Below, piece by piece: positions 12,801 through 55,923 of a DNA stretch of 64,000 bases. Where the stretch lies: the sequence record NC_019423.1, one strand, 5' to 3'. Position numbers and translations under genes: made by a program. The notes under the pieces are model-generated. The model did no database searches and was not told the origin of the DNA. It saw only the letters and a list, made by a program, of their open reading frames with translations. This stretch comes from Escherichia phage IME11. Every line of letters starts with the position of its first letter. Positions within the stretch are counted from its first letter, which is position 1.

Positions 12801-15800
12801 TGCTCTGGAATACGACCAGCGTGAGGGTGCTACTGATGACCTGTTACGTATTGGTGCTGAACAGATTGAACGTAATCTGCGTAACATTGCTCTGGGTGTA
12901 GATATTCGCCACAAGGTAATGAACCAGGTACAGACTACTGTTGACCAGATGGCTGCTGTAGGTGCTCCTTATGTGAACAACGGTAAAATTTCTCTGGAAG
13001 GTCTGACTGTAGACCAACAAGTAGCTAAGCTGAACGAACTGTTTGATGTTGAATTAAACAAGCGTCGTGATGCAGTACGTGCTGCTAAAGCAGAACCAGT
13101 GAAAGAAGTACCAGCAATGGAACAGGTTGGTCGTGTACTGAAGTCTGGTGTACGTCTACTGTCTAATACTGCTATTACTAAGTTGGCTAAAGAGATGACT
13201 CCAGAACAGGCTGCTGTACTGAAAGAAGTACAGAACTCCCTTGCTGCTAAAGACTACAAGGTTGTTTATGGCACTCCTTCTCAACTGGATGCCTACGCTA
13301 TTGAGAAGAACATTACTCGCCCAGCACCGGAAGATATTGAAGCTGCTGAAGCTGGTAATGCATACGGCTGGACTAACTTTGATGATAAGACCATCTACTT
13401 AGTTACTCCTTCCTTAGAGACTCTGGTTCATGAATTGGTACATGCTTCTACTTTTGAATCTGTACTGGCTCACTATGAAGGTACTCCTAATGAAGCAGTT
13501 CAGAATATTGAAGACCTGATGAACCAGTTCCGAACTCTGGATGTTAAGGATGAATCCCCGGCAGTACGTGAAGCATATGCTGATGCACTCAATACCATTA
13601 ATGGTCACTTGTCTAATGGCTTTATTGAACCAGCAATGGCTAAAGCTGCTGCACTGAATGAGTACATGGCATGGGGCTTAACCAACCGTGAACTGATTGG
13701 TAAGCAGAAGAAAACCACTGCACTTAAGGCCATGGTTCAGTCTGTGTATGAAGCAATCAAACGTCTGGTATTCGGACGTAAGAAAGCCCCTGCTAACGCA
13801 GATGATATGTTCTCTGGCTTACTGTTTAACTCTTCTGTAGTTATGCGTGGGCAGGCTCCTACTGCTGCTGTAGCCAAGGACACTACTCTGTTCCATAACA
13901 AAGCATATGGTGACAATACTCGTCTGGAAGAGCTAGGGAAGACCTTCGATAAACTGATTACTAACTACATTGGTTCAGAACCAGTACAACAAGTAATTCG
14001 TAAAGGTAAGTTCTCTGATGCAGTAGTGAATGCAACTAAAGTAACCCGTGATGTTCAGGCTCATGGCTTCACTATGAATATGCAGGAACAGCGTCTCTTT
14101 ACTAACATTGTTGCTGCACTGGCTACCGAAGCTGCTATTAGTCCAGCTGCTCTGGCTCGTGCACAAGAATACTATGCACACGTAACCAAGAACCTGACTG
14201 TTGAAGCGTTCATGACTGACCCGGATAGTACTAACCCTGCTGACCGTTACTACGCACAGCAGAAGTTCGATACCATCATGGGTGCTAACAACATTGAGTT
14301 TGATGCACAAGGTCGTTCTTCCTTACTGCCTACCTTTGTGGCACTGGCAATGGTAAGTGAAGATGTACGTAATGTGCTGGCTGACATTCCTGTTATGAAA
14401 GCAGATAAGCAATCCGGTAATACCGTTGATGCAATGCTGACTAATATCGGTACTGCTGCAATGGCTAGTCTGAATGCTCGTGTAGCAGGTGATACTAAAG
14501 CTACCAATGTACAAGAAGGTATGGATGCACTGGCTCAGACCATCATGCAGACCAGTCTTAATGCACAGTCATTCTATGATTCCGTCGCCACTCCTAGTGG
14601 TAATGCTATAGACCGTGCTAACCAGTATCTGGTGGACTCTATTGATGTACTGTCTACCCGTGCTTTAGAAGGTGCTCGTGAAGTTGCAGCTAATACCAAG
14701 AACCCGTTGGTTAAAGGTGCTGCTCATGCTGCACAACTGGTAGCTGCTATTGCTACAGAGAAGAATGGTGCAATCGTAGCTGAAGGTGTTATGGCTGCAA
14801 TGAACCAGGGTAAAGCATGGCAACCTTTCCACGACCTGGTTAATGACTTAACCGGACGTACTAAGAGCAATGCTTCTGTATATGATTTGATTAAAGCAGT
14901 TCGTGCACAGGTACAGGCTGACCGTCAACAGTTCCGTGAACACTTACCTACCACTATCGCATCCAAGTTCAGCCGTAAGCTGACTAATGATGAGTGGAAA
15001 GCAATGCATACCGGTATGGGTAAAACTGACTTGGCTGTCCTGCGTGACACTATGTCTTTGGCTGAAATTCGTGACCTGCTGACTGACCAGAAGATTGTTG
15101 ACCGTGAGGTGAATAAGCTGGAAGCAGATTTACAGAAACAAGCAGGACGTAACTGGCCTTTGATTAGCCGTAAATCTAAGCAACTGGCTCAGTACATGAT
15201 TAACGGTACAGTCGGTAGTAACCTGCTGCGTAATGCTACTGCAATTTCTCGTATGCTGGGTGAACGACAGGCTGCACGTTCTACCGTAGATGTGGCTCAA
15301 CTGGATAAGCTGATTACCTTGTATGCACTGGAAGCAATGAATAAGACTGACCGTGAGATGTTATCTTCACTGGCTCAGACAGAAATTGAAGGTATGGACT
15401 TTGCTACTTCTTATCTGGTTGGGCAGCGTAAAGATGAAATGGCTAAAGCCAAGTCTGATATGCGTGCAACCTTGAACCAGTACAAAGGACATATCCCCAG
15501 TGAAACTAAACAGGGTGTTAACCTGATTGTTGCTGAAGATAGTCAGTTTGCTGATTTGATTGAGAAGTCCTATGTACGTCTGGGTACTTATCAAGGTAGT
15601 TCTGCTAACCGTGGTCCAGCACGTAGCTACTACTTTGCACCAGTACAGGCACAGGCTCCATTCTCACAGGGTATATTACAGAACGTTCGCAATACTGCTG
15701 GTGGTGTGGACCTTGGTACAGGCTTTACGATGGGTTCCATGGTAGCAGGTCGTATCACTGACAAGCCTTCCGTAGACCGTATCACTAAAGCTCTGGCTCG

Positions 15801-17232
15801 TGGTGAACGTGGTAATGAACCACTGCTGCCTGTATATGATGACAAAGGGAATGTGGTTGCTTATGAGCAATCCATTGACCCTAACATGCTGAAGCACATT
15901 GAGGGTGAGAACCATCTTGCTCGTGCAATCGGTGTATGGCGTGGTCGTCAGGTAGAAGAGGCTAAGGCTCAGCGTTTCAACGATATGCTTATTGAGAACC
16001 TACATAGCATGTATGAGAACGACATTAAGATGTCTGCCTCTAATAAGTCCCAGTACGTTAACCTTCTTGGTTCTAAACTGGACCCAGTAACTGCCGATGC
16101 TCTTAAGCTGATGAATAGTGAAACTCGTCAGAAAGCAGAAAGCCTGTTTGGCCCGGGTGAGTTGTGGGTACGTCGTGATATGCTCAACGATGCTCTTGGT
16201 TATCGTGCAGCTTCTGTAGGGGATGCCTGGTCTGGTAATTCTCGTTGGTCCCCAGAAACACTGGATACCTTCAAGAAAGCTATGCTAGGTGTATTTGGCA
16301 ATCGTGCATATAAGTACACAATGGGTGGTGAGAACCTGGTTCAGAACTTAGTTAAAGAAGCTAAGACCCTGATTGTAGTTAAGTCAGTAGTCGTACCTGC
16401 AGTTAACTTCCTAGCTAACCTTTACCAGATGGTTGCTCGTGGTGTACCGGTTAAGAACATTGCTAAGAGCATTCCACAGAAGACTGCTGAGATTAACCAG
16501 TACCTGAAATCTCGTCTACGTCAGGTAGATGCAGAAGCAGAATTACGTGCAGCTACTAACCCGAACCAGATTCGTAAACTTAAGGCTGAGATTCAGTCCA
16601 TCTCTGATAGCCATAAGCGTTTAAGTATCTGGCCTCTGTTAGAAGCTGGTGAGTTCTCTTCAATTGCAGATGCTGGTATCGGACGTGATGACATCCTTAT
16701 TACTGAGGGTAAACTTCACGAATACATGGATAAGCTGGCTGATAAGCTACCTAAGTCTGTACGTAACGCAGGTCGTTATGCACTTATCACTAAGGATACT
16801 GCTCTCTTCCAGGGTATCCAGAAGACGGTTGAGTACTCTGACTTTATCGCTAAAGCAATCATCTATGATGAACTGACTCAGCGTAAAGGTAAGACTCGTG
16901 AGGAAGCACTGGGACGTGTAACGGAAGAGTTCATTAACTATGATCGTTTACCTGGTCGCTTCCGTGGGTATATGGAAAGCATTGGCTTAATGTGGTTCTA
17001 CAACTTTAAGATTCGTTCTGCAAAAGTTGCAGTGTCCATGATTCGTAATAACCCAGTACATGCTGCTATGGCTATGTTGGCTCCAACCCCTACCATGTTT
17101 GGTAATGTTGGTTTACCTATTCAGGACAACATCTTCAGCATTGCTGCACAGGGCAATCTCGGTTACTCCTTCGGTTTCGGTCAGGGCTTACGTGCCCATA
17201 ACCTGAACCCTTGGCTCAATCTTACTAACTAA
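6880..17232 (+). CDS. virion-encapsidated giant RNA polymerase (N4 vRNAP-like)
   Basis: ~3450-aa single ORF (track start 6862 is TTG; ATG at 6880 follows AGGAA). T7-like motif A YVEADGVTNGPIN (Asp codon 11446-11448), motif B RGIAKNPLTITIYGSG (~11770-11815), motif C KIFDGMNIG (Asp codon 12622-12624). The two Asp are 392 aa apart, the spacing I recall for N4 vRNAP. Confidence 0.9.
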   Translation: MSTFDRLAGFADSITNAKQVDVSTATSQKQAAQGQSPFQLTPENAYNLQTGRVGNLGTGAFDPGSLQADFTQASPLEIINKYGNEQGLQILNSRANAADVVRQDLSKQRTNSEAFGDTLSGVGLGVANTLGGIAALGTGLVNDNAGASIASGMDWLNEGVHNLQSDALNATRKVVQNQNQISAQENQKLYEEDIKNGESSLVASLSRIGRDAFDSVANTLDNGMAASDGLSEGVGSLFTGGPLIRGVSALGKVMVGGDKAVKGITLAAELGSRPAQVALSAGRVAAPAVAIGGMEAGGAYQQTASEIMKMSHQELASKSPVYRQHIADGLSPDEARRQTASETGITAAGLTAPVAAATGPLVSRFELNPLKVGSLAGAGSNMLRETVEEGIQSGFGQFAQNTAIKENVDASRDTLKGVGEQAGLGALYGFGSAGVAQAPGATVKAAGAAVGPTVRTTLAGASLVGNALAKVASPITNILVQRGEEVAKRNEQASPVSDATVNAAAQEATAQAEQAQATVQEAVDAMDISPEEKAAATQYAADLTQAMKFDPVELEQANPAIREAVSGSTNRVEAIQKMADLVNTAEDPNIQMEAAIQMYDNIMSMDSFINRDPGALANLEQGSPAANIVDQFSGLMANVQNTPKVLRAFRAIHSMIQEQAEAGKLKATEEANQAQANNIAMAADMSPEVLDADSVNMVLKHASEGKITLGNRQRAALQSAAAVLQGAREFDAKAEELGLRPQDIVSKQIKTDESRSNEGQYSALQHAKRIRSAYNSGNFDLASAYLDDFMKFAQHMQNKVGALNEHLISGNADKNKSVHYQALSPSREWVRSRTGLGVNPYDTKSVKFAQQVGLEAKTVADIANALATAYPELNVSHVKVTPLDSRLDKPAAQVVKEFRQGNLDAAQSQQTNEPVNQVDESPAPVQEATTTVQPKTKPVVENKSAPVKDTSSKPEEVTTTESETVDTALTNEDTTQEVAETKTEMETVFPVYNNDKTPSQFLKAFALPEEPKTRTIGSESPLTDVKQALSSAARFEAFTQKENNALTGDVMKRYQDLLGFGETLKSTLSDRLAKFLANKNVGKRFAEGTEANRWVGGKLLNIVEKDGDTFKFNDQLLETAVLAGLQWRLTATQNAAIKDMKDVAAITGVEVSLLPDGILADFENAQTLVEATNSLAQKIESYWGLNRNPNAPLGYTKGIPMAMATEILSSLIEMGEVKESMLDVSEIDPASNKTVGLYTIEKLDDNDAINNFPTAIEEAVLVEPEEKMYFGDDIPSVAQTQLRNPAVKNTPEQQAALKAEQATEFRVHMPMVNFYEALGRDNILELMGAGTLNPELLNVNTAKSLEGKNLSVSMAYDSLFGVINQVQEQENGLDTPIHYGYNMTRVGRMQMLGKNNPQSSKLVREAILPTFSTIDLSNENSQTFSDFQLGLAQALGIKVHNMSREAMSEKLTKALEGNLKPAVDMMVEFDKSGHLPTDAVDILKTSLGGDKSFVALMALMEYARYLNSNDRANFNTPLYVEADGVTNGPINAMVLMTGGKFTPDWIKNTAKGGLFFGKAGKTMNEHRSQDDSVDLYEASTNGLQQALGELRSTYRNNVPVMSQMSHLQKLMDLFIKDFNLNEDGTLDLKRGIAKNPLTITIYGSGARGIAGKMVSAITDTIYERFSDVLQARAADPSISPAMAMFGKEAASEADAQAMLDTFLTSMEALTGNVPVMRKGELSIQQAEGALTGKLDPQKFTVSGNALKNLQENMLHLFVEPMRTGIRNTVGEGLMHSTENLQKATQIQSLVLQDMFQQAVQAKLAEKEKDPTWKKGDFLTQKELNEIQESLSPLAPMIETGSQTFYIAGSENTDVANQVLATNLDDRMRVPMSIYAPSQAGVAGIPFMTIGTGDGMMMQTLSTMKGAPKNTLKIFDGMNIGINDITDASRKANEAVYTSWQGNPIKNVYDSFAKFMKNVDFSKLSDETKQAIAKSALEYDQREGATDDLLRIGAEQIERNLRNIALGVDIRHKVMNQVQTTVDQMAAVGAPYVNNGKISLEGLTVDQQVAKLNELFDVELNKRRDAVRAAKAEPVKEVPAMEQVGRVLKSGVRLLSNTAITKLAKEMTPEQAAVLKEVQNSLAAKDYKVVYGTPSQLDAYAIEKNITRPAPEDIEAAEAGNAYGWTNFDDKTIYLVTPSLETLVHELVHASTFESVLAHYEGTPNEAVQNIEDLMNQFRTLDVKDESPAVREAYADALNTINGHLSNGFIEPAMAKAAALNEYMAWGLTNRELIGKQKKTTALKAMVQSVYEAIKRLVFGRKKAPANADDMFSGLLFNSSVVMRGQAPTAAVAKDTTLFHNKAYGDNTRLEELGKTFDKLITNYIGSEPVQQVIRKGKFSDAVVNATKVTRDVQAHGFTMNMQEQRLFTNIVAALATEAAISPAALARAQEYYAHVTKNLTVEAFMTDPDSTNPADRYYAQQKFDTIMGANNIEFDAQGRSSLLPTFVALAMVSEDVRNVLADIPVMKADKQSGNTVDAMLTNIGTAAMASLNARVAGDTKATNVQEGMDALAQTIMQTSLNAQSFYDSVATPSGNAIDRANQYLVDSIDVLSTRALEGAREVAANTKNPLVKGAAHAAQLVAAIATEKNGAIVAEGVMAAMNQGKAWQPFHDLVNDLTGRTKSNASVYDLIKAVRAQVQADRQQFREHLPTTIASKFSRKLTNDEWKAMHTGMGKTDLAVLRDTMSLAEIRDLLTDQKIVDREVNKLEADLQKQAGRNWPLISRKSKQLAQYMINGTVGSNLLRNATAISRMLGERQAARSTVDVAQLDKLITLYALEAMNKTDREMLSSLAQTEIEGMDFATSYLVGQRKDEMAKAKSDMRATLNQYKGHIPSETKQGVNLIVAEDSQFADLIEKSYVRLGTYQGSSANRGPARSYYFAPVQAQAPFSQGILQNVRNTAGGVDLGTGFTMGSMVAGRITDKPSVDRITKALARGERGNEPLLPVYDDKGNVVAYEQSIDPNMLKHIEGENHLARAIGVWRGRQVEEAKAQRFNDMLIENLHSMYENDIKMSASNKSQYVNLLGSKLDPVTADALKLMNSETRQKAESLFGPGELWVRRDMLNDALGYRAASVGDAWSGNSRWSPETLDTFKKAMLGVFGNRAYKYTMGGENLVQNLVKEAKTLIVVKSVVVPAVNFLANLYQMVARGVPVKNIAKSIPQKTAEINQYLKSRLRQVDAEAELRAATNPNQIRKLKAEIQSISDSHKRLSIWPLLEAGEFSSIADAGIGRDDILITEGKLHEYMDKLADKLPKSVRNAGRYALITKDTALFQGIQKTVEYSDFIAKAIIYDELTQRKGKTREEALGRVTEEFINYDRLPGRFRGYMESIGLMWFYNFKIRSAKVAVSMIRNNPVHAAMAMLAPTPTMFGNVGLPIQDNIFSIAAQGNLGYSFGFGQGLRAHNLNPWLNLTN

Positions 17233-47012: not shown

Positions 47013-48230
47013 TTAACTAAGGGCATAATCAGTCTCCAGAATGTCCTGCCAGAGGCTGTCATCCAGCTTACCAGCAGAGAACTCTTGCCCCAATACCTGA
47101 GACAGGATGAAGCCCAGCAGGTCACTCTTAGCGATGTCAGACAGAATCTGATTGTACTGACGACGCAGGTCATTACCGTAGTTAGGATGGCAACGGAAGC
47201 AGTCATGCACAGTCATTACAGGGAATGGTTTCTTAGGCAGAGTGTCAATCATATCTGCTACTACCTGACGGTCTACATAAGCAATAGTACATGGGTCAAG
47301 ATAATCAATGATTGATAATGATAAGAAGCCAGATTTCTCATAGTGGCTCCATAGCTCTTGTACCTTCTCCAGATTACCTACAATCTCCCCATATTCTGAT
47401 GGACCTTCATCACAGAGTTCTCTCACAGCTTCCACTAAGTCACGGTCGAAGTTACAACGACGCAGCATCTCACGTACCACCATCCCATCAATTGAGTGAG
47501 TGATGTTAGCAGAGAGCATACGAGTCTTCTCTTCAGTACCCTGAACCATACGAGTGATGTCGAATGGCTTACCTAAGAAGTTAACAGTCTGTACTTCAGG
47601 AACCATTACCTTAATGACAGCGTGGAAGTTGTCAGGCAGTACCCATATATAACGGTTGGCATCCGGGTTACCACATTGCAGTAAGAACTTGTTCAGTGCC
47701 CAAGGACCACTTGCAACAGTTTCCATTACATTCTCAAAAGTCTTGAGACGAATACCTTCACCGAATACCTCTTTGGGCTTGGCTTCTGAGCCGTAGAATG
47801 CAGTCATAACTGCTTGCTTGGTGTCACTACGTTTAATACGGGATGCTTCACCAAGGATGTCCAGCATCTTGTGATAGATGACTGTATAAGCATCACGACG
47901 TAATGGCTTACCATTCTCTCCCATGTAGTTAACTACGTTACACAGTTCAGCAGCAGAACGGTCACCAGTCAGGCAGGCCAGTAACTGCAAGCCTGATGAT
48001 GTAGCATCCAGAGCTACGGCATAACCGATAGGCTTACCTGCTTTCATATCTTTCCATGCGTTTACACCAGCAAAGAACAGTGCAGATTCTTCAGCCTCAT
48101 CTACCAGATTAAGCAGGTTAGTTTCGTTCTCATCGAACCAAGCAATACGCTCATCCCATGTCTTCTTATCTAAGCCATAGTTATTGGCGATATCTACTTT
48201 CAGGTATTCACGAGCGGTTAACAGTTGCAT
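47013..48230 (-). CDS. T7-like RNA polymerase catalytic subunit (N4 RNAP II large-subunit-like)
   Basis: 405 aa; motif A AVALDATSSGLQ, motif B TKQAVMTAFYGSE, motif C MTVHDCF. Confidence 0.75.
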   Translation of the reverse strand: MQLLTAREYLKVDIANNYGLDKKTWDERIAWFDENETNLLNLVDEAEESALFFAGVNAWKDMKAGKPIGYAVALDATSSGLQLLACLTGDRSAAELCNVVNYMGENGKPLRRDAYTVIYHKMLDILGEASRIKRSDTKQAVMTAFYGSEAKPKEVFGEGIRLKTFENVMETVASGPWALNKFLLQCGNPDANRYIWVLPDNFHAVIKVMVPEVQTVNFLGKPFDITRMVQGTEEKTRMLSANITHSIDGMVVREMLRRCNFDRDLVEAVRELCDEGPSEYGEIVGNLEKVQELWSHYEKSGFLSLSIIDYLDPCTIAYVDRQVVADMIDTLPKKPFPVMTVHDCFRCHPNYGNDLRRQYNQILSDIAKSDLLGFILSQVLGQEFSAGKLDDSLWQDILETDYALS

Positions 48231-48287
48231 TTTATGTTCCTTTTGCTTCTTGGCTCCCCACTATGGAGAGCCTGCTTATTGGATGGA

Positions 48288-48527
48288 TTAGCCAGCATTA
48301 AATGATGCCAATACTATTCCTGGTTCCACACCTTCGGTGGCAATGCCCAGATATTCAACGTTTACTTTGTCAGGGGAAGAGCACCAAGCGGAGTATAGTT
48401 TCCATTCCCCGTCTGGGTTAATAAGGCGAGCTTCCTCTTCAGTTTTAGCCGCTACTACAGCAGAATCGTATGAATCCCATCCCGTATTTTCTTCCTGGCT
48501 AATAAGCCATAGTTTTAATCTACTCAT
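48288..48527 (-). CDS. hypothetical protein
   Basis: 79-aa ORF between the two RNAP II subunit genes. Confidence 0.4.
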   Translation of the reverse strand: MSRLKLWLISQEENTGWDSYDSAVVAAKTEEEARLINPDGEWKLYSAWCSSPDKVNVEYLGIATEGVEPGIVLASFNAG

Positions 48528-48697
48528 CGTTTACTAGCTCCTTATCTTAGATGGTTACTACGTCTGCAGTTAGTTTGTAAATTATGGTTTTACTCTTAGG
48601 GTTCTGTAGCTTGTAAAGCTTCTCAAAGTATAAGCACTTCACATATGTACCTGAGTAAATACACTCTTCATTAACCCATAGCTCATAGGAGCCAATG

Positions 48698-49516
48698 TTA
48701 GTCTTCATTTACTAACTCCTTATCAGCGAACTCCAGCACAGCTTTGTTGTAACTGGTTCCCTGATAGTTGATGTGGTAGCCACAGGCATATGTACGCCCA
48801 CGTTTGTCATATTTGTGAGCCAAGGAGAAGTTATTGCCTTCTTTGGTTACTAGCTCCATTACTTCCTTAGCTGTACGACTGTACTTCTCAAAGGCTTTAA
48901 CACGTTTCTCATAGTCCTGACGGGTTTCACCTTCTTTGGGTTTATCCATGTTAGGACGAGAGTCTTTTACGTAGTTAGCAACGTCCCAGTTAATGCAGAG
49001 ACGTTGATTATTCATACGGTTGATGTGGTCAAGACAGACGTCCATCTCATGATGGTTCTTCTTGAGGATGATGCTTCCTTTGCTTTCGTAGTAACCGGTG
49101 TCACGGTTACTCATAACAGGCTTAGGAGCACTTACGATAGGCAATGGGTACTGGAATGCTTCCAGTTCCATCTGTACATCTTCACCAATCTCATAAATAA
49201 CACCGAACTTGTCGATGGTAGGGTCATAGTTGAAGCAGTCATTCTCTGCCATCTTATACAGACAGTCAGCGATGTACTGAGCATCATCTGAGTGACTCAT
49301 GAGGGAGCCAATCATAGTTTGAATGTCAGCTCGTTTATGTAGGGCAATCTGCACCATTGCATCAATGAGCAGCTTATAATCAATTTCTAAATAGGCAGCG
49401 AATGCCTTAAAGTCAATTTCTTTGGAGTCCTCGAATTCCTTCCTCATGCGAGGCAGGAGCTGATTTTTATTGAATAGTACTTCGAGTTGCTTCTGATGTT
49501 CGATTGACGAGTACAT
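48698..49516 (-). CDS. putative RNAP II small subunit (by position and size)
   Basis: 272-aa ORF immediately downstream of hairpin promoter 49546-49564 and upstream of the catalytic subunit; assignment is by synteny. Confidence 0.45.
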   Translation of the reverse strand: MYSSIEHQKQLEVLFNKNQLLPRMRKEFEDSKEIDFKAFAAYLEIDYKLLIDAMVQIALHKRADIQTMIGSLMSHSDDAQYIADCLYKMAENDCFNYDPTIDKFGVIYEIGEDVQMELEAFQYPLPIVSAPKPVMSNRDTGYYESKGSIILKKNHHEMDVCLDHINRMNNQRLCINWDVANYVKDSRPNMDKPKEGETRQDYEKRVKAFEKYSRTAKEVMELVTKEGNNFSLAHKYDKRGRTYACGYHINYQGTSYNKAVLEFADKELVNED

Positions 49517-49545
49517 CGCTTATTCTCCTAAATGTGATTAATAAC

Positions 49546-49564
49546 CAAAAGCTGCGGAGCAGCT
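49546..49564 (-). promoter_or_regulatory. N4-type vRNAP hairpin promoter (template on plus strand, transcription leftward)
   Basis: CCAAAA-AGCTGC-GGA-GCAGCT: 6-bp stem, GGA loop; CC at 49545-49546 sits 11 nt 5' of the loop-centre G (template +1/+2, giving a GG-initiated RNA). Confidence 0.6.
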
Positions 49565-49569
49565 ATTAC

Positions 49570-49830
49570 CTAACGCTTAGTCCAAAAGGTAATACGAATA
49601 CTATTTTCATTACCAATGTAGTCGATACGTACATGCAAGCCATTACCATTAAACTCATTGCTTTTATTCTGATAAGGCCAGACTAGGCTAGTCATAGGTA
49701 TTTTAATGAAACCTGATATGTGTCCTAGTTTAGTACGGCTCTTTAATTCGTTCTGTAATGCACAATAGATATCGTGTCGTGTAAGTGCTCTGGCTCTGAC
49801 TTGAGCAGACCATAATTCTTCATAAGTCAT
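49570..49830 (-). CDS. hypothetical protein
   Basis: 86-aa ORF. Confidence 0.4.
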   Translation of the reverse strand: MTYEELWSAQVRARALTRHDIYCALQNELKSRTKLGHISGFIKIPMTSLVWPYQNKSNEFNGNGLHVRIDYIGNENSIRITFWTKR

Positions 49831-49832
49831 TA

Positions 49833-50183
49833 TTAACTCCAGTAGTTGTAAGCATCGCCTAAGTGTTTACGCCATGCTTCTGGTAACAGTACATTTCCAG
49901 TTACGTTAATGAATTGGTATGGGTCCAGATAGTCATTACTCATAACTTTGAAATCCCATTGTGGATTAGAAGATGCATAGGCAATGAAACCTTCAATGAA
50001 GCCATAGATAGCACCCTCTTTAATCCGGTTACCATAACCATCCTTTACTGGAATGGCAAAGCTATTACCATAATGACCATAGGCCATACCCCAGCGAGCA
50101 CCATGCTTCTTATATGCTAATTTGGCAGCAGCATTATTATGCTGCCCAAGTAAATTGGTAGTGAATACTAAGATTTCTTTCAT
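49833..50183 (-). CDS. hypothetical protein
   Basis: 116-aa ORF. Confidence 0.45.
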   Translation of the reverse strand: MKEILVFTTNLLGQHNNAAAKLAYKKHGARWGMAYGHYGNSFAIPVKDGYGNRIKEGAIYGFIEGFIAYASSNPQWDFKVMSNDYLDPYQFINVTGNVLLPEAWRKHLGDAYNYWS

Positions 50184-50186
50184 GAA

Positions 50187-50567
50187 TTATCCTTTTGGAT
50201 TTTCTACAAAGTAGTTATACATAGCCTTTACTAGCTTCTCTTTAATAACTTCACCATGACATGGTTTTGGATAGCAGAAGCACTGTAAGGCTAATCCTTT
50301 CTCGTCAATGGCTTTATTACCAAGACGATTAAGTTCATCCAGCACAACTGGATTACCTTTATCAATCTGTTCTTGTAACCAGACTCTATACTTAGCAATT
50401 ACTTGCTCTCTGGTTCCATGTTTACCAATGACGAATGGATTGCCTAATGGTGAGCCACGTCCAATATACTCACCGGATTTACCGTGATGTTTATTAACAA
50501 TAATGATTGGACGTGCAGATACACCTAGTAAAGCATTGGTGTCGTCACCTAATGACATAATCTTCAT
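50187..50567 (-). CDS. DUF4326-like protein
   Basis: 126 aa; GRGSPLGNPF...AKYRVWL resembles the DUF4326 WGNPF-type signature. Confidence 0.4.
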   Translation of the reverse strand: MKIMSLGDDTNALLGVSARPIIIVNKHHGKSGEYIGRGSPLGNPFVIGKHGTREQVIAKYRVWLQEQIDKGNPVVLDELNRLGNKAIDEKGLALQCFCYPKPCHGEVIKEKLVKAMYNYFVENPKG

Positions 50568-50878
50568 GGTTTAAGTACCTGAAATGCAAACACAGGACGT
50601 TTACTACGCCACTGGTTCATAGCTAATTCACTAGTTTCAGAACCATCATGTAAGTCATAGATAAATGAGATTACATAGTCTGGTTCCTCTGGGAAGTTCT
50701 CTGTAGAGAATGGTAGACCTGATTCCTTAAGGATTGGAACTAGTGGTGATTCAGCATTGCAGTACAGAGTAAACTCTTCATTGAATGCTTGGCTTGTCTG
50801 AGATACATAATCAATATTACGCATCATCTTATCTACATCAGTAAATGTAGAATCATGAATTACTAGAATAGTTTTCAT
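50564..50878 (-). CDS. hypothetical protein
   Basis: 104-aa ORF, ATGA coupling. Confidence 0.4.
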   Translation of the reverse strand: MKTILVIHDSTFTDVDKMMRNIDYVSQTSQAFNEEFTLYCNAESPLVPILKESGLPFSTENFPEEPDYVISFIYDLHDGSETSELAMNQWRSKRPVFAFQVLKP

Positions 50879-51129
50879 ACCTTTCTCAATGTCCCATAGA
50901 TGTTATTATTGACAATACTCAAATCACAGAAACCAATCTCTTCTTGTCTCCCAGCGGATACCCAGATATTGTTTTCTGTTAGCTTAGGTTTCTTAGAGAA
51001 TCCTATTAATGAGGTATTAGCACTCTTATACTGTCGGGTATATAACGCTATATACTTAACCCAGTGAGGCACTTGAATAGTATGTTTCATATACTCCACA
51101 GTCTTGCCTGTAGGATATGTAATAATCAT
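50875..51129 (-). CDS. hypothetical protein
   Basis: 84-aa ORF. Confidence 0.4.
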   Translation of the reverse strand: MIITYPTGKTVEYMKHTIQVPHWVKYIALYTRQYKSANTSLIGFSKKPKLTENNIWVSAGRQEEIGFCDLSIVNNNIYGTLRKV

Positions 51130-51347
51130 TTCTGATACCCTTCTATGAAGTTAGTACGACGAATGAGCTGAGTAGATGCCTTAACAGCCGTCTTCTTGAA
51201 CTCATCTTTGTGTTGGTTTTCCAATATCTTATCCCATTCTTTCTGGTTCCGGCGTTTCTGTAGAATACGACTACACTTCTTATGATTAGCAACTCCTTTA
51301 CGTTTATTACATATAGGGCAAACACCATAATCAGTTGAGTACATCAT
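51126..51347 (-). CDS. small Cys-containing basic protein (possible Zn-ribbon)
   Basis: 73 aa; CPIC...KKCS pattern; basic. Confidence 0.4.
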   Translation of the reverse strand: MMYSTDYGVCPICNKRKGVANHKKCSRILQKRRNQKEWDKILENQHKDEFKKTAVKASTQLIRRTNFIEGYQK

Positions 51348-51652
51348 TGGCTTAAAGCCTCCATTAATATTTTACGAATAACGTTAACATCAGATTCAGT
51401 ACCAATTAAGCCAACAGGTTTACCTGTACTATCTGTTACAAAGGATGCAATCCTTTCCATCTCTGCTATAATTAACTTGTCACCACTAATAAGACGATTA
51501 CGAAGGTAAGCTTCATAAGCTACCTCTACATCTTCTACCGTGGTTCTTTCATTACGAGAGAATGGATTACTTAATGGAAAGGGTAAATGTACCCTTATAT
51601 TCCTGTCAGCTACCTTAGCTAAATGAGGAAGTATACATACTATTTCATTCAA
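51344..51652 (-). CDS. hypothetical protein
   Basis: 102-aa ORF. Confidence 0.4.
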   Translation of the reverse strand: MNEIVCILPHLAKVADRNIRVHLPFPLSNPFSRNERTTVEDVEVAYEAYLRNRLISGDKLIIAEMERIASFVTDSTGKPVGLIGTESDVNVIRKILMEALSQ

Positions 51653-51734
51653 GGTTATTTCTCCTATTTAAATACATATCTAACTATTCAAGAATAAAAA
51701 ATAGAAGCCCTCCTAATGGAGGACTCCTTACAGT

Positions 51735-51947
51735 TTAGGAATATAGCTTGAATAGTTTTACTAATAACTCCATTACAAACCAAATCGTATAACCAATAGT
51801 TACACCACTGAGTAATGAACTGAAGTAACCCAATACAACAGCAGCAATATAATTATCACTGTTTTTAAGTGCACATAGTGCTTCTTTACCATTACGCTTC
51901 TGCCAACCATTCATGATTAGCAGTGTTACTAAGATAATAATTTCCAT
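51735..51947 (-). CDS. small membrane protein
   Basis: 70 aa with two hydrophobic helices. Confidence 0.4.
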   Translation of the reverse strand: MEIIILVTLLIMNGWQKRNGKEALCALKNSDNYIAAVVLGYFSSLLSGVTIGYTIWFVMELLVKLFKLYS

Positions 51948-52132
51948 TAGTTGTTTCCTAAGATTGATGGATGGTTGAAGGTTACGATACGAGCTTTACT
52001 TTGTTTAAGTCCTGCATCAATGAACTCTTGTAATTGTTCATTGGTCATGCTGAGTGCCCGTTTACTTGCTACATTACGATTACGCATACGTGATACGTCT
52101 TCTTTGGTTCCCATGATTAATGACTTACGCAT
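51947..52132 (-). CDS. hypothetical small protein
   Basis: 61-aa ORF. Confidence 0.35.
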   Translation of the reverse strand: MRKSLIMGTKEDVSRMRNRNVASKRALSMTNEQLQEFIDAGLKQSKARIVTFNHPSILGNN

Positions 52133-52289
52133 GATTTAGTTGTCCACATAAAACGTTGAGGGTTACTGTTACGTACAATACGCACAGCAATGAGATGACC
52201 TTTCTGTACCAGACCATAATGTCTTATCTGAGGACCACTGGTCATACGATACATAGCTTCTTCAATAGCAGCCTCTATATCGGTGAACA

Positions 52290-52508
52290 TCACTGGTTCC
52301 TCTTAGCATAGTCTTCTGCTTCCTTAGCCCAGAGTTGCTTACGAACTTCTTTAGCTACGATGGAAGCAAACAGACACTTAACGAATACAACTGGTAGCTT
52401 ACAGATAAGTACCAGCTTAGTGATTACCCACTTGGCTCCATTGAGGATGTAACCACGTAGGCGATACAGCACATAACAGAGTATTACAAACGCAATGAAG
52501 TCCAACAT
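52290..52508 (-). CDS. small membrane protein
   Basis: 72 aa, hydrophobic N-terminal half. Confidence 0.4.
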   Translation of the reverse strand: MLDFIAFVILCYVLYRLRGYILNGAKWVITKLVLICKLPVVFVKCLFASIVAKEVRKQLWAKEAEDYAKRNQ

Positions 52509-52512
52509 AGTC

Positions 52513-52698
52513 TTACTCCTTATGGAGTTTACGGATTTGTTTACGGGTAGGTTTAGTTACAAAGAAGTGGTCATAGCAACGACCATTTTCATCTTTTACA
52601 GATACCTGCCAACGAGCATTCAATGTCATCTTACTGCCCCAAGGCTGTAATGTAACAATCAACTTCTGTGAGTTATAACGGTTACATACTGTACGCAT
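52513..52698 (-). CDS. small basic protein, paralog of 53352-53558
   Basis: 61 aa ending KPTRKQIRKLHKE; shares N-terminal MR and C-terminal KPT(K/R)KQIRKL with its paralog. Confidence 0.45.
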   Translation of the reverse strand: MRTVCNRYNSQKLIVTLQPWGSKMTLNARWQVSVKDENGRCYDHFFVTKPTRKQIRKLHKE

Positions 52699-52803
52699 AA
52701 TGGTTACTCCTTCATCTAATATAAATCTATATCTATTGAGTTACTGTTTCAGTACCCTTCGTCTAAAGATACTCAAAAAGTAGAAATAGCTTATCGTCTA
52801 GTT

Positions 52804-52831
52804 AAAAATAAAAGACTCCCCGAAGGGAGTC
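52804..52831 (-). terminator. rho-independent terminator
   Basis: GACTCCC-cgaa-GGGAGTC preceded on plus by AAAAATAAAA (T-run on minus). Confidence 0.55.
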
Positions 52832-52841
52832 CAGTGGTTGA

Positions 52842-53318
52842 TTAGAAAGTCAGTTTACGAGCATATTTATTCTCGTCTGCTGGGATGTCAGCAGCCTCTG
52901 CTTTCACTCGACGAAGTTGAACTTGCAGGTTAATGATACCTTCTTCACCTGGTTCCAGGTTCTGAGCATATTCAATTAACTGTTCCAGCAAGTCGTTCTG
53001 TGCACAACGCATAGCACGGAAGTCAGCATTGCTGCTATTAGTAGGCAGTGGTTCCTGAGTATCCAGTGGAATACCAGTGGGCAAAGAGATGAACTTCTCT
53101 TCTTCAGAGCCTTCATTAGCTACATAACCAATGTTTAACCAGAACTGTGCCTTAGGCTTAGCAGCTTTAGATTCAGTAGAAGCAGCAGCGTTAGATTGAC
53201 CGAAAGTGAATTTTTGAATAGACATTTTGTACTCTCCAGATTTATGTGATTTACGGGTGAACTCGTCGGTGAGAACACCCAAACAAAAGGATAAAAGTTC
53301 AATGATTAGTGGATGCAT
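52842..53318 (-). CDS. hypothetical early protein (probable start near 53228)
   Basis: 158-aa track ORF; internal MSIQKF start more plausible; directly downstream of hairpin promoter 53329-53347. Confidence 0.45.
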
Positions 53319-53328
53319 TTACATCATC

Positions 53329-53347
53329 CATAAGACGCGGAGCGTCT
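53329..53347 (-). promoter_or_regulatory. N4-type vRNAP hairpin promoter
   Basis: CATCCATA-AGACGC-GGA-GCGTCT; CC at 53328-53329 is 11 nt 5' of the loop-centre G. Confidence 0.6.
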
Positions 53348-53351
53348 AGTT

Positions 53352-53558
53352 TTAGATTGCTTCTTTACGAAACTCTCTACGCAATTTACGGATTTGTTTC
53401 TTGGTAGGCTTAGCAGGGAATGAATGACAAGCAACATAGTGCTGTCTCTCTGTTACGTTAGTAATCTCTGAGAACCAAAGATTCCACTGAGCATCCATCT
53501 TACCTAACAATCCACCATTGTTACTCTTGTTTGCAAACAGGGAAGTTTGAATACGCAT
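53352..53558 (-). CDS. small basic protein, paralog of 52513-52698
   Basis: 68 aa with C-terminal KPTKKQIRKLRREFRK; flanked by two hairpin promoters. Confidence 0.45.
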   Translation of the reverse strand: MRIQTSLFANKSNNGGLLGKMDAQWNLWFSEITNVTERQHYVACHSFPAKPTKKQIRKLRREFRKEAI

Positions 53559-53587
53559 AGCTTAATCTCCAATAGTTAAATGATAGC

Positions 53588-53606
53588 CAATAGATGTGGA
53601 GCATCT
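53588..53606 (-). promoter_or_regulatory. N4-type vRNAP hairpin promoter
   Basis: AGCCAAT-AGATGT-GGA-GCATCT (one T-G in stem); CC at 53587-53588 is 11 nt 5' of the loop-centre G. Confidence 0.55.
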
Positions 53607-53612
53607 TGGTTT

Positions 53613-53813
53613 TTAAGGAATGTAAGAAAACCAGGTTAGCAGTTCAGCTTTAGCTTTCTGATACTTACTGTCTACATTTTCATCTGAGATATCTATGTCT
53701 GATTCTCCATAATGATGGAGGTCAGACTGATATTGTTCTTGCTGACGAACGGCTTCTTCAAAGCGTTCTAAAGCTTCTTGTGGAGATTCAGATTTGCAAT
53801 CTGTTAGAGACAT
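53613..53813 (-). CDS. hypothetical small acidic protein
   Basis: 66-aa ORF. Confidence 0.4.
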   Translation of the reverse strand: MSLTDCKSESPQEALERFEEAVRQQEQYQSDLHHYGESDIDISDENVDSKYQKAKAELLTWFSYIP

Positions 53814-53815
53814 AC

Positions 53816-53998
53816 TTATTCCTTAGTTAGTTCAACTATAAAGTTATCTAGTTTCTGCCTAGCTATTTCACACGATTCTACTATTGATTCATAGTCATCA
53901 GGGTCTGCTGAACCAGCCCAACTATCTGCAATTGCTGATTCTGCGTAGTTACTAATTAGCTTTTTAAGCTTCTCTGCTTGCTTAGGATTAAGGGACAT
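53816..53998 (-). CDS. hypothetical small protein
   Basis: 60-aa ORF. Confidence 0.4.
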   Translation of the reverse strand: MSLNPKQAEKLKKLISNYAESAIADSWAGSADPDDYESIVESCEIARQKLDNFIVELTKE

Positions 53999-54041
53999 TT
54001 TACTTCTCCTAAAGTAGATAGTTATCTACTTTTGACTATCT

Positions 54042-54068
54042 ATCTAATGTTCAAAACAGGAGACTCCG
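54042..54068 (-). terminator. putative terminator hairpin
   Basis: GGAGACTC-cgaa-GAGTCTCC downstream of 54087-54410. Confidence 0.4.
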
Positions 54069-54086
54069 AAGAGTCTCCTAGGTGAC

Positions 54087-54410
54087 TTAGTCTTTAGTCA
54101 GGATGTCAATTACTTTAGAATATTCTGCGTTATAGATACGAGCGTTCTCTGAATCTTTGCAGAAATCTTCGATACTTTTCTTACGCAGAGTCTCGTTCCT
54201 AGCTGTTTCCTCTGCCAGTTTATTAACAAAGGTATGCATTTCTAATTTAGTACGAATGGCTTGTTTCTCTGCCATAGTACTTACATATGAATTAAGCATA
54301 CCTACTGCTTTAGTTGCTGTACCAAATGTATCTGCAACAGTAGTAGCAGCTGAGTTAACAGTACCAAGTAAAGTTCCTGCGGTCATACGTACAGTAGCGG
54401 TAGTAGTCAT
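54087..54410 (-). CDS. hypothetical early protein
   Basis: 107-aa ORF, first gene downstream of hairpin promoter 54449-54467. Confidence 0.45.
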   Translation of the reverse strand: MTTTATVRMTAGTLLGTVNSAATTVADTFGTATKAVGMLNSYVSTMAEKQAIRTKLEMHTFVNKLAEETARNETLRKKSIEDFCKDSENARIYNAEYSKVIDILTKD

Positions 54411-54448
54411 GATGATAGCTCCAATAGTTGATGATAGGACGACATGTC

Positions 54449-54467
54449 CATAACATGCGGAGCATGT
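54449..54467 (-). promoter_or_regulatory. N4-type vRNAP hairpin promoter (the one furthest to the right in this window)
   Basis: GTCCATA-ACATGC-GGA-GCATGT; CC at 54448-54449 is 11 nt 5' of the loop-centre G. Confidence 0.6.
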
Positions 54468-54643
54468 GTAACGTGTAAGGTGGGGTAGGGTAGTGGCTAC
54501 ACCGTCAACATACCGGGGGGGCTAGTTGAGTGTAAGGGTGTAGCCCCAGCCACACCACTGTAGCCATACATAGCTATCATCATTTTGGTATGCAAAAATA
54601 CCATAGCTATCCTACTTATAAGCAGTTAAATAGGAGGAAGCTT

Positions 54644-54964
54644 TCAGGTGATTATGCGTGCTATACCAGGGTAATAGTCCGGATGGTTAGGATTACCACT
54701 ACTATTCCTTACGGTAGCATCTTTGATAAATACATGGGCATAATCACCGTATGGTATGAATACTGACTCACCATTTTGCAGGATAACTATCTCTGCATTA
54801 CTGTTAGTAAGTAGCTTATGTCCCTGTGCAAAGTCTGCTAACTCTCCTGGCTCCATTATTAGTGTAGAAGTTCCATGGGTCATAATGTGGATGATTGCTT
54901 TTTCTGGTACAGAGGAATAATGCAGTAAGTCCGTACCTTTCATTCCTAATAGTTTAACGTTCAT
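54644..54964 (-). CDS. small protein of tandem paralog family (member F)
   Basis: 106 aa; core EPGELADFAQGHKLLTNSNAEIVILQNGESVFIP shared with 55265-55615 and others. Confidence 0.5.
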   Translation of the reverse strand: MNVKLLGMKGTDLLHYSSVPEKAIIHIMTHGTSTLIMEPGELADFAQGHKLLTNSNAEIVILQNGESVFIPYGDYAHVFIKDATVRNSSGNPNHPDYYPGIARIIT

Positions 54965-55268
54965 GCTTCAGTACCTGTTTAAGAAGACTATCCATGTAAT
55001 AGCAGTATGCCTCGGAGTTATCATCGTTGATTGGTAATCCAATGAACCCGAAGGTGTATATACAGAAGTGATTAAGTTCATGAACCAAGGTGATAGGGTC
55101 ACTATCTTGTGCATAGATAAGTACCGAACCATCAGATAGCAGTGTAGTTACACCTTTGCTTTGTTCCTCTGGTTCACAGCCCTTAGCTTTCTTGTACTTC
55201 TTAATGAAGGTATCCCAGTCGAATACTACCTCTAACTGTACCGGATAGGGGGATGTGTTTAGTTTCAT
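54954..55268 (-). CDS. small HExxH-motif protein (putative mini metallopeptidase-like)
   Basis: 104 aa; LVHELNHFCIY contains HExxH; embedded in the paralog array. Confidence 0.45.
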   Translation of the reverse strand: MKLNTSPYPVQLEVVFDWDTFIKKYKKAKGCEPEEQSKGVTTLLSDGSVLIYAQDSDPITLVHELNHFCIYTFGFIGLPINDDNSEAYCYYMDSLLKQVLKHER

Positions 55269-55615: not shown

Positions 55616-55923
55616 TCGTCGCTAGATAAATATGAGGTAGAAGGATAGAGGGTAATAAGTCTACCTGTTAGGGTAGTTACTACCATAGGTTCACAGGAGG
55701 AGTAGATGTATACAACTACATTCTCTGGAACTTCAATGGAAGTATCTATTTTAATAAAGGTAATAGGTACACCCAACATGAGGCAGGTTCCGATGAACTC
55801 ATCCGCTTTTTCACATTGTTCGTAGTACATGGTCATAGGTGTGCTTATCCTCAACCAATGGGATTTACCTACCCCCAGATTAAGGGGACTGGTACTACGA
55901 TAACTCAAACCATAGAAGTGCAT
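55603..55923 (-). CDS. small protein, possible divergent member of the paralog family (D)
   Basis: 106 aa; weaker similarity (ADEFIGTCLMLGVPITFIKIDTSIEVP). Confidence 0.4.
   Translation of the reverse strand: MHFYGLSYRSTSPLNLGVGKSHWLRISTPMTMYYEQCEKADEFIGTCLMLGVPITFIKIDTSIEVPENVVVYIYSSCEPMVVTTLTGRLITLYPSTSYLSSDECTL

Follow-up and report, generated by a model that had tools for sequence, protein, structure and literature searches.

The window, the whole 64,000-nucleotide stretch analysed here, shows the genome of a G7C-like phage (Gamaleyavirus, Schitoviridae) in circularly permuted form; about 8-9 kb of that genome falls outside the window. Megablast of the region returned Gamaleyavirus genomes at 87-94% identity, with matches stopping at the physical genome end, at about window position 54553. 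The early genes lie on the minus strand between 49.5 and 54.55 kb. The genes that bear on the analysis are as follows.

6880..17232, plus strand: virion RNA polymerase gene (gp50 homologue), the predicted reader of the four hairpins
47013..49516, minus strand: RNAPII gene block downstream of site 1, with two small ORFs between gp15 and gp16
47013-48230, minus strand: gp16 homologue (68% identity to N4 gp16)
48698-49516, minus strand: gp15 homologue, an RNAPII subunit (65% identity to N4 gp15)
52842..53318, minus strand: gp2 homologue, the RNAPII cofactor, after site 2 (69% identity to N4 gp2, 94% to G7C gp2)
53352..53558, minus strand: 68-aa accessory ORF, the sole gene that would depend specifically on site 3
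54087..54410, minus strand: gp1 homologue, first gene after site 4 (66% identity to N4 gp1, 88% to G7C gp1)

Among these genes are four short inverted repeats, each preceded by a CC dinucleotide.

49550-49564, plus strand: site 1 hairpin, AGCTGC-GGA-GCAGCT (element with CC, 49545..49564; 5' flank CCAAA, CC at 49545-6)
53333-53347, plus strand: site 2 hairpin, AGACGC-GGA-GCGTCT (element with CC, 53328..53347; 5' flank CCATA, CC at 53328-9)
53592-53606, plus strand: site 3 hairpin, AGATGT-GGA-GCATCT (element with CC, 53587..53606; 5' flank CCAAT, CC at 53587-8)
54453-54467, plus strand: site 4 hairpin, ACATGC-GGA-GCATGT (element with CC, 54448..54467; 5' flank CCATA, CC at 54448-9)

The original prediction had given the positions, sequences and strand of these hairpins exactly, and the ORF map bore out its placement of all four in intergenic gaps between minus-strand ORFs. 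The sites span 4.9 kb on a single strand, are between 95 nt and about 5.0 kb away from the physical left end of the genome, and precede and share the orientation of early genes (the gp1, gp2 and gp15 homologues). In every site the loop-centre G is 11 nt 3' of the hairpin-proximal C, the spacing that had been proposed. The proposed 6-bp stem was found at sites 1, 2 and 4, where the template strand gives six unbroken pairs around a 3-nt loop, but not at site 3, where T53597 lies opposite G53601 and five Watson-Crick pairs remain.

Frequency of the motif and terminator-like hairpins

The prediction had named shuffled sequence as a check on the motif, and we compared the window with 300 dinucleotide shuffles on both strands. 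A perfect 6-bp stem with GGA loop and CC occurred three times against 0.020 expected, and the full motif with one stem mismatch allowed occurred six times against 0.36 expected; neither count was reached in any of the 300 shuffles. Elsewhere in the 64 kb we found no other G(A/G)A-loop hairpin with -8G, a -9C closing pair and +1C. Chance palindromes without function in an AT-rich intergenic region might be suspected, given that the heptamer GCGRAGC alone showed no enrichment (6 versus 5.65 expected) and that short one-mismatch hairpins are common (14 versus 8.7 in shuffles). The excess of the full motif, the confinement of all four sites to one strand and to intergenic gaps, and conservation in over 20 relatives, complete with compensatory changes, leave that reading practically no credence, and the shuffle statistics and the conservation effectively refute it. 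The signal is the combination of hairpin, spacing and strand rather than the GC-rich heptamer. Sigma-70-like host promoter sites were depleted in the region (9 versus 23.2 expected).

The region also contains hairpins that resemble intrinsic terminators.

54052..54079, minus strand: terminator-like hairpin after gp1, AGGAGACTC-TTCG-GAGTCTCCT then GTTTTG (RNA fold -17.1 kcal/mol, z -4.3); the SP5M record has a terminator annotated at the equivalent position
52813..52832, minus strand: terminator-like hairpin after gp2, then a U-run (-14.1 kcal/mol, z -3.7)
51703..51728, minus strand: terminator-like hairpin within the small early ORF block, then a U-run (-18.5 kcal/mol, z -4.5)

A consensus scan called two of the four elements terminator-like as well, site 1 on the minus strand (AGCTGCTCCGCAGCT with TTTGGTTATT) and site 2 on the plus strand (with AGTTTTAGAT), which would fit a role for the hairpins as RNA-level terminators or attenuators of early or antisense transcripts instead of promoters. 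As sense RNA, however, the four fold at only -5.8 to -8.8 kcal/mol (z -0.4 to -1.8) and three of the four have no U-run, whereas the terminator-like hairpins proper reach -14 to -18.5 kcal/mol (z -3.7 to -4.5) and have U-runs after them. Termination would also leave unexplained the invariant template-strand GGA, the -8G, the CC at a fixed 11/12 nt and the identity with mapped N4 promoters, and we consider it very improbable.

Correspondence with the N4 promoters and their polymerase

The three promoters of phage N4, P1, P2 and P3, have been mapped in vivo and in vitro, and a crystal structure of the P2 complex exists. The same scan applied to N4 (NC_008720) picked up all three on the template strand, near positions 97, 566 and 4555. 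Sites 4, 2 and 1 align with P1, P2 and P3, respectively, across hairpin, CC start and leader, and the genes that follow them are homologues of gp1, gp2 and gp15 (RNAPII), as after the N4 promoters.

Site 4, counterpart of N4 P1: predicted start 54449, leftward, 39-nt leader to the gp1 ATG
Site 2, counterpart of N4 P2: predicted start 53329, 11-nt leader to the gp2 ATG
Site 1, counterpart of N4 P3: predicted start 49546, 30-nt leader with AGGAG to the gp15 ATG
Site 3, accessory and absent from N4: predicted start 53588, 30-nt leader with GGAG to the 68-aa ORF

The flanks of site 4, catgtCCata...gtaacgtg, are nearly identical to those of P1; the site falls within the terminal repeat, some 95 nt away from the genome's physical left end, and the terminal-repeat annotation of Mimir124 includes an equivalent hairpin. 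The site 2 leader GGATGATGTAAATGCATCC aligns with N4 GGATGAAGTAATGCATCC, the flanks of site 2 are likewise shared with P2, and the site 1 hairpin is identical to that of P3. On these alignments and the recovery of the mapped promoters, we judge the predicted class (N4-type virion RNA polymerase hairpin promoters), leftward direction and start sites to be right. The N4 P2 sequence given with the prediction (AGAAGC-GGA) is correct, and the site placed directly upstream of the RNAP II genes does precede the gp15 homologue.

A review of N4 describes a loop of 5'G (-10), central purine (-11) and 3'A (-12), a G:C loop-closing pair needed for hairpin extrusion and stability, contact of D901 with -9C, G at -8 and C at +1 (PMC4496689); R904 reads the -8G through the major groove, and +1C lies 8 nt from -8. 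In the window the loop is GGA and -8 is G in all four sites, the latter invariant in an alignment of 38 sequences. The CC at +1/+2 is likewise present in all four and invariant in that alignment, for which relatives were collected with a CC filter. The closing pair C(-9):G(-13) appears as GC-GGA-GC at 49554-60, 53337-43 and 54457-63, so that sites 1, 2 and 4 carry every determinant reported for N4 (-11G, -10G, -12A, the -9C:-13G pair, -8G and +1C).

The polymerase ORF was listed from an in-frame TTG at 6862, and we chose the ATG at 6880, which matches the N4 gp50 N-terminus. It matches the PDB chains of N4 vRNAP (E=0); identity to N4 gp50 is 67% over the whole protein and 71% within the polymerase domain. 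Conserved residues are K114, R119, W129, K849, K850, D901 and R904, along with the catalytic D559/D951; by contrast, K267 of the intercalating hairpin is N in the window polymerase.

In complete relatives the hairpins are confined to the left ~6.3 kb plus a P1 copy in the right terminal repeat, and the GGA loop invariably sits on the strand that is template for the genes downstream, as in the window. Stems of the P1 counterparts are ACATGC, AGTTGC or GGTTGC, and those of the site 3 counterparts are AGAAGC/GCTTCT, AGATGC/GCATCT or AGACGC/GCGTCT between identical flanks. Double changes occur at five of the six stem pairs across 38 distinct sequences, a count inflated by pre-filtering for at least 5/6 pairs; the robust part of the covariation is the compensatory change seen where the flanks show two sites to correspond. 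Together with the sequence itself, the motif statistics, the N4 correspondence and the conserved polymerase residues, these compensatory changes support the interpretation that the four elements are very probably the early promoters from which this G7C-like (Gamaleyavirus) N4-like phage is transcribed by the RNA polymerase it packages in the virion and injects.

The altered loop closure of site 3

The original prediction had treated site 3 as equivalent to the other three sites, which its loop closure contradicts. A C-to-T change at -9 places T53597 opposite G53601, and the C(-9):G(-13) pair is lost. Among the 38 distinct promoter sequences the -9:-13 pair is CG in 34, TA in 3 and TG in 1, the sole T·G being site 3. 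The nine counterparts (SP5M, PE007, U1G, ST4, K57alpha1.2, NAN33P5, KKP3715, Jgk1 and UViG_3300045988) have stems AGAAGC, AGATGC or AGACGC, matched in every case by compensation in the 3' arm, and C:G at the closing pair in nine of nine. As single-stranded DNA, site 3 folds into a 5-bp stem with a 5-nt loop at -4.5 kcal/mol, versus -5.7 for the intact K57alpha1.2 counterpart. From mutational and structural statements in the N4 review, according to which extrusion needs the G:C closing pair, site 3 is probably weakened in this genome. T53597 could also be a sequencing error.

Full activity of all four sites, with a Gamaleyavirus polymerase that tolerates a non-C at -9 and a T·G wobble that closes the loop, strikes us as possible if somewhat doubtful. 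Site 3 retains -12A, -11G, -10G, -8G, +1C and +2C together with its good GGAG leader, and the functional N4 P1 is predicted to be less stable (-3.7 versus -4.5 kcal/mol by nearest-neighbour parameters, which ignore GNA-triloop stability). Moreover, G7C, pSb-1 and CU10EC keep an extra hairpin closed by -9T paired to -13A, and therefore -9C may be non-obligatory in the genus. Against such tolerance stand the reported need for G:C closure, the conservation in the window polymerase of the D901 that contacts -9C, and the uniform C:G of the corresponding sites; on the opposite strand the change leaves a C·A mismatch, from which cruciform extrusion should suffer.

More speculatively, and in our estimate rather unlikely, site 3 would be a natural, uncompensated loop-closing mutant of an accessory promoter that, with the T:A hairpins of G7C, pSb-1 and CU10EC, would reveal either a looser requirement at -9/-13 in Gamaleyavirus polymerases than in N4 or free decay of accessory promoters. 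If accessory promoters do decay freely once gp2 has its own promoter, the variation between three and five promoters would reflect gain and loss of a cassette of promoter plus ORF, with no fixed regulon. Weakening of site 3, the reading we prefer, would be tolerable, since directly downstream an intact promoter serves gp2.

Proposed mechanism and comparison with known systems

By analogy with N4, host gyrase would supercoil the DNA after injection and each inverted repeat would extrude as a cruciform, its template (plus) strand arm forming a very stable GC-GGA-GC mini-hairpin. The injected polymerase would read -11G, -10G, -9C and -8G and begin the RNA with GTP at the C located 11 nt from the loop centre, transcribing leftward; we infer both initiation at these sites and its dependence on gyrase and SSB. 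Promoters of the N4 type are further marked by rifampicin-resistant initiation in vivo and by activity on ssDNA in vitro. Site 4 (P1) would serve gp1, ending at the terminator; site 2 (P2) would serve gp2 to its terminator and, presumably by read-through, the small early ORFs; and site 1 (P3) would serve gp15 and gp16, which form the RNA polymerase of the middle genes. Site 3 would be an accessory promoter travelling with the cassette of the 68-aa ORF, which is present in about half of the relatives sampled. At site 3 of this genome, the change from C:G to T·G, with C·A on the opposite strand, would be expected to weaken extrusion and polymerase binding.

The promoter set is of a known type, site 3 is an additional copy typical of the genus but with a point change that probably impairs it, and four sites are not unusual. 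As in N4, sites 1, 2 and 4 are template-strand hairpins with stems in the N4 range (5-7 bp), a 3-nt G-purine-A loop, C:G loop closure, -8G and +1C 11 nt from the loop centre, and in both phages gp1, gp2 and gp15 are preceded by the promoters near the left end of the genome. The window differs from N4 in its P1 counterpart, where the loop is GGA and the stem is the 6-bp ACATGC (N4 P1 has a GAA loop and a 5-bp stem), and in having three small ORFs and the extra hairpin of site 3 between gp1 and gp2. The N4 promoters were mapped experimentally, whereas those of the window are predicted from sequence; the literature searched yielded no transcript 5' ends or biochemistry for the promoters of any Gamaleyavirus.

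Within the genus, extra hairpins in SP5M, PE007, U1G, ST4, K57alpha1.2, NAN33P5, KKP3715 and Jgk1 share the site 3 flank gatatCCaat ... tggtttttaag and, like site 3, follow an orf66-like gene and precede the 68-aa ORF family. The 68-aa ORF itself is 94-96% identical in amino acids to those of SP5M, PE007 and U1G, and a search for an N4 homologue found none. The extra hairpins of relatives are closed by C:G, or by T:A in the G7C type, and T·G is found only in the window. In K57alpha1.2, ST4 and NAN33P5 the site-3-type promoter is the sole one ahead of gp2.

Having four sites rather than three had been put forward as distinctive, but relatives carry three, four or five hairpins, and Klebsiella phage KP8 (Kaypoctavirus, Enquatrovirinae) already has a published P1-P4, annotated in GenBank as early promoters and predicted only from similarity to N4. 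These stand ahead of gp1, a small ORF, the gp2 analogue and the gp15 analogue, the order found in the window, and the KP8 P2 hairpin, AGACGC-GGA-GCGTCT, is that of site 2. KP8 differs in belonging to another genus and in the intact C:G closure of all four hairpins. In Pseudomonas phage LUZ7, from a distant genus with other downstream genes, an injected N4-type polymerase likewise uses hairpin promoters, which have a 3-nt loop and give G-initiated transcripts; LUZ7 stems go down to 4 bp, and starts lie 13-14 nt from the hairpin centre versus 11 here. ONT-cappable-seq mapped nine early start sites in LUZ7, so the number of such promoters is not fixed at three.

Template-strand hairpins and their N4 counterparts

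Four 15-nt elements had been proposed as equivalent N4-type promoters, each with a 6-bp stem, a GGA loop and a CC start. Re-reading the window reproduced the coordinates and sequences of all four exactly, together with a CC 11/12 nt 5' of the loop-centre G at each:

49550-49564, plus strand: site 1, counterpart of N4 P3
53333-53347, plus strand: site 2, counterpart of N4 P2
53592-53606, plus strand: site 3, an accessory extra hairpin without N4 counterpart
54453-54467, plus strand: site 4, counterpart of N4 P1

The 6-bp stem proved right for sites 1, 2 and 4 but not for site 3, in which loop-closing T53597 lies opposite G53601. A hairpin scan of the 64 kb found three perfect 6-bp GGA-loop stems on the plus strand (loops at 49556, 53339 and 54459) and a single perfect GGA-loop stem of at least 5 bp on the minus strand; site 3 (loop at 53598) was recovered solely when G·T pairs were permitted. 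Folded as single-stranded DNA, sites 1, 2 and 4 gave -5.7, -5.6 and -4.7 kcal/mol, and site 3, whose stem shortens to 5 bp around a 5-nt loop, gave -4.5 kcal/mol. The original prediction had proposed a comparison with shuffled sequence, in which the motif was not equally frequent; a chance origin is excluded.

Motif counts in the window, with 300 dinucleotide shuffles as null model
Perfect stem + GGA + CC: observed 3; expected 0.020; shuffles reaching observed, 0/300
Same motif, one stem mismatch allowed: observed 6; expected 0.36; shuffles reaching observed, 0/300

The GC-rich heptamer GCGRAGC alone occurs in the window at chance frequency, without enrichment, and is therefore unusable as a signal on its own. 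Scanning the window for further promoters (G(A/G)A loops with at least four consecutive pairs and any flank, or with 5/6 pairs and C at +1) yielded none; apart from the four sites, CC at +1/+2 accompanied just two hairpins, the lookalikes at 22254 and 54690:

22248-22262, plus strand: CTGCAT-GGA-ATACAG, CC at the right distance, one stem mismatch, -8A, -9T
54684-54698, plus strand: TGGTTA-GGA-TTACCA, CC at the +1/+2 distance, a stem mismatch, no -8G/-9C

Both were rejected as promoters, each having a stem mismatch and lacking -8G and -9C; we take the first as chance, and the second is probably not a polymerase site. Rfam gave zero matches in 47-56 kb at E values up to 1.

The identical scan of the first 9 kb of N4 (NC_008720) returned three template-strand hairpins, with 5-7 bp stems, a C:G closing pair and a CC start:

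~97, template strand: GTTGC-GAA-GCAAC, ahead of gp1
~566, template strand: AAGAAGC-GGA-GCTTCTT, ahead of gp2
~4555, template strand: AAGCTGC-GGA-GCAGCTT, ahead of gp15

Sense-strand alignment matched sites 4, 2 and 1 with N4 P1, P2 and P3 from the hairpin through the GG start to the leader (for example, window GGATGATGTAAATGCATCC and N4 GGATGAAGTAATGCATCC), with the Shine-Dalgarno region AACTATTGGAG common to both phages. The homologous genes are as follows:

54087-54410: gp1 homologue, 66% identity to N4 gp1
52842-53318: gp2 homologue (RNAPII cofactor), 69% identity to N4 gp2
48698-49516: gp15 homologue (RNAPII), 65% identity to N4 gp15
47013-48230: gp16 homologue (RNAPII), 68% identity to N4 gp16

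The N4 polymerase recognises -11A/G, -10G, -8G and +1C and starts 8 nt downstream of -8; -11 and -10 are read by W129, K114 and R119, D901 contacts -9C/-10G, R904 contacts -8G, K849 and K850 bind the backbone, and extrusion and stability depend on a G:C loop-closing pair together with 5'G and 3'A in the loop (2015 review, PMC4496689). Sites 1, 2 and 4 show every one of these sequence features, and site 3 departs from them in the closing pair alone. On the plus strand, 6880-17232 encodes the giant virion RNA polymerase (ORF listing and homology); the product is 67% identical to N4 gp50, the injected polymerase, and 71% identical in the polymerase domain. K114, R119, W129, K849, K850, D901, R904 and the catalytic aspartates are conserved; the N4 numbering is valid, since each N4 residue named here proved to be the expected amino acid. 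The only replacement is K267 of the intercalating hairpin, which is N in the window polymerase (residue 1238), and the base-reading residues are all conserved. In N4, K267 belongs to the pair of intercalating-hairpin lysines by which the promoter stem is melted at its base.

Genome layout and covariation among relatives

Megablast with 49000-55500 matched 79 phage records, nearly all of them Escherichia, Shigella and Klebsiella phages of Gamaleyavirus (G7C-like; Schitoviridae, Enquatrovirinae), the Gamaleyavirus matches having 87-94% identity over ~60-75% of the query. In many of these the match ends at the record's base 1 (query 5551-5554, window ~54550-54553), which shows the window to be a circularly permuted copy of an N4-like genome of ~72 kb, with its physical left end near 54553 and its early genes on the minus strand, oriented leftward. 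The lookalike at 54684-54698 lies ~135 nt past this end, which puts it in the genome's right-end region, and its sequence is identical in ECBP1 (position 40). Site 4 is ~95 nt from the genome end, within the terminal repeat; N4 terminal repeats are 390-440 bp, and the 403-bp repeat annotated in Mimir124 spans the equivalent P1 hairpin. A second P1 copy is therefore expected at the right end of virion DNA, and the Jgk1 record has one there. P1 occurs at 95, 595 and 73753 in Jgk1 and twice, 215 bp apart, in CU10EC, as terminal-repeat copies or assembly duplications.

The IMG/VR search for relatives gave only seven loci, so the comparison was drawn from the GenBank phage collection and covered ~20 further genomes (G7C, SP5M, Mimir124, ECBP1, pSb-1, PhAPEC5, CU10EC, nithesis, AN24P2, NAN33P5, K57alpha1.2, PE007, U1G, ST4, Jgk1, KKP3715, KP8 and three IMG/VR contigs). 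All carry the same kind of hairpin, always on the early-gene template strand and always with -8G; since the scan itself demanded CC at +1/+2, that feature is not an independent observation. The common layout is P1, gp1, an optional orf66-like gene, an optional extra hairpin with an orf68-like gene, an optional hairpin with gp2 and, further on, a hairpin ahead of gp15.

Hairpins between gp1 and gp2
Extra hairpin and gp2 hairpin: window, SP5M, PE007, U1G, Jgk1
Extra hairpin only (then also serving gp2): K57alpha1.2, ST4, NAN33P5
gp2 hairpin only: Mimir124, ECBP1, AN24P2, nithesis

Jgk1 has five distinct hairpins. In PE007 and Jgk1, the two relatives scanned end to end, perfect-stem hairpins of this type were confined to the left ~6.3 kb and, as a copy of P1, to the right terminal repeat; Jgk1 has three mismatched GAA-loop lookalikes elsewhere. 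By analogy, the 8-9 kb of the genome beyond the window would be expected to hold no additional site.

Corresponding sites show compensatory double changes between identical flanks: the stems of site-3 counterparts are AGAAGC/GCTTCT, AGATGC/GCATCT and AGACGC/GCGTCT, and those of P1 counterparts are ACATGC, AGTTGC and GGTTGC, the 3' arm matching in every case. Across 38 distinct sequences, five of the six stem pairs change on both sides and the covariation score is 0.50, compared with 0.13 in shuffles and at most 0.11 in slid registers; because this set was gathered with a pairing filter, the independent evidence is only the compensatory pattern between corresponding sites established by their flanks.

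On the template strand, 3' of gp2-type and extra hairpins, lies a conserved TGGTTTTTAAG (AGTTTTAG at site 2; 53607-53617 and 53348-53356, plus strand), a sense-strand A-tract just upstream of the promoter that overlaps the upstream ORF's stop codon. It is common to different promoter copies and phages, is absent from N4 and, as an AT-rich flank, might aid cruciform extrusion. The deposited annotation of K57alpha1.2 (OY979416.1) places primase, SSB, Sak4 and virion RNA polymerase over early-region DNA that tblastn identifies as gp1, gp2 and gp15 homologues; the feature table appears to be out of register with the sequence.

The loop-closing mismatch at site 3

The loop-closing pair is C:G in 9/9 corresponding sites and T·G in the window alone. 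Site 3 is one transition from the intact K57alpha1.2/NAN33P5 sequence AGATGC-GGA-GCATCT, and its opposite strand has a C·A mismatch at the same position. Because the review requires a G:C closing pair (PMC4496689), extrusion and binding would be reduced, and we consider site 3 probably weakened substantially. We give a fully active site 3 a lower probability. Three observations speak against a strong effect: G7C, pSb-1 and CU10EC have an extra hairpin closed by T:A, site 3 outranks N4 P1 in nearest-neighbour energy, and T53597 could be an assembly error. With an intact promoter of its own (site 2) 259 bp downstream, gp2 does not need site 3; the 68-aa accessory ORF is the one gene left dependent on it, which would relax selection on the site.

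The site-3 leader (GGCTATCATTTAACTATTGGAG..., 53559-53588) resembles the P1 leader (…CCTATCATCAACTATTGGAG..., 54411-54449) and the N4 P1 leader, all on the minus strand. Sequence likeness suggests that the accessory cassette acquired a duplicated promoter-leader module.

A search of IMG/VR with the exact pattern CCAATAGATGYGGAGCATCT found no other carriers of the T variant. Seven metagenome stretches contained CCAATAGATGYGGAGCATCT; their flanks were unrelated, their proteins did not resemble those of the window, and they were set aside as uninformative chance or unrelated repeats. The 20-mer CCAATAGATGCGGAGCATCT forms part of a conserved repeat of ~60 nt (…gccagccaacCCAAT…ggccttaga.tttttccg), with two occurrences on each of two contigs (contigs for the 20-mer: Ga0116151_10001418, Ga0116152_10002349 and Ga0116152_10000741); the metagenome contigs bearing it had no similarity to any window ORF of at least 100 aa.

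Predicted early transcription units and known systems

Transcription is predicted to start at 54449, 53588, 53329 and 49546, which would give leaders of 39, 30, 11 and 30 nt, respectively, to the next ATG. Three strong terminator-like hairpins (-14 to -18.5 kcal/mol, z -3.7 to -4.5 by RNA folding) lie nearby:

54079-54052, minus strand: after gp1
52832-52813, minus strand: after gp2
51728-51703, minus strand: after an internal early ORF

A terminator role for the four promoter hairpins themselves is unlikely, because their sense RNA folds weakly (-5.8 to -8.8 kcal/mol, z -0.4 to -1.8) and mostly lacks a U-run, in contrast to the three terminator-like hairpins above. Sigma-70-like matches in 48000-56000 are depleted (9, against 23.2 +/- 4.9 in shuffles), consistent with host-polymerase-independent transcription. 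Two small ORFs (60 and 66 aa; 53613-53998, minus strand) between the gp1 terminator and site 3 have no hairpin promoter of their own and would need P1 read-through or a middle-class promoter.

These results place the predicted early transcription starts correctly and delimit the predicted injected-polymerase regulon to gp1, the 68-aa accessory ORF, gp2 with small early ORFs, and the RNAPII genes, which is of use in annotating and engineering therapeutic G7C-like coliphages. The four hairpins add no new mechanism: their identification is correct and the feature is ordinary, the sole small curiosity being the site-3 mismatch, a natural loop-closing variant that could test extrusion and recognition rules outside N4. 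Our literature search, whose coverage did not extend to the G7C genome paper, found no paper on Gamaleyavirus hairpins specifically.

N4-type hairpin promoters have been a textbook case since the 1980s-90s. The class has long been known for N4 (2015 review, PMC4496689), and hairpin promoters have been predicted in many N4-like phages. In LUZ7, early promoters of this class have been mapped, with nine early starts. The idea that four sites set this phage apart did not survive comparison with Klebsiella phage KP8, in which a four-promoter layout, identical in order to that of the window, is already published and annotated.
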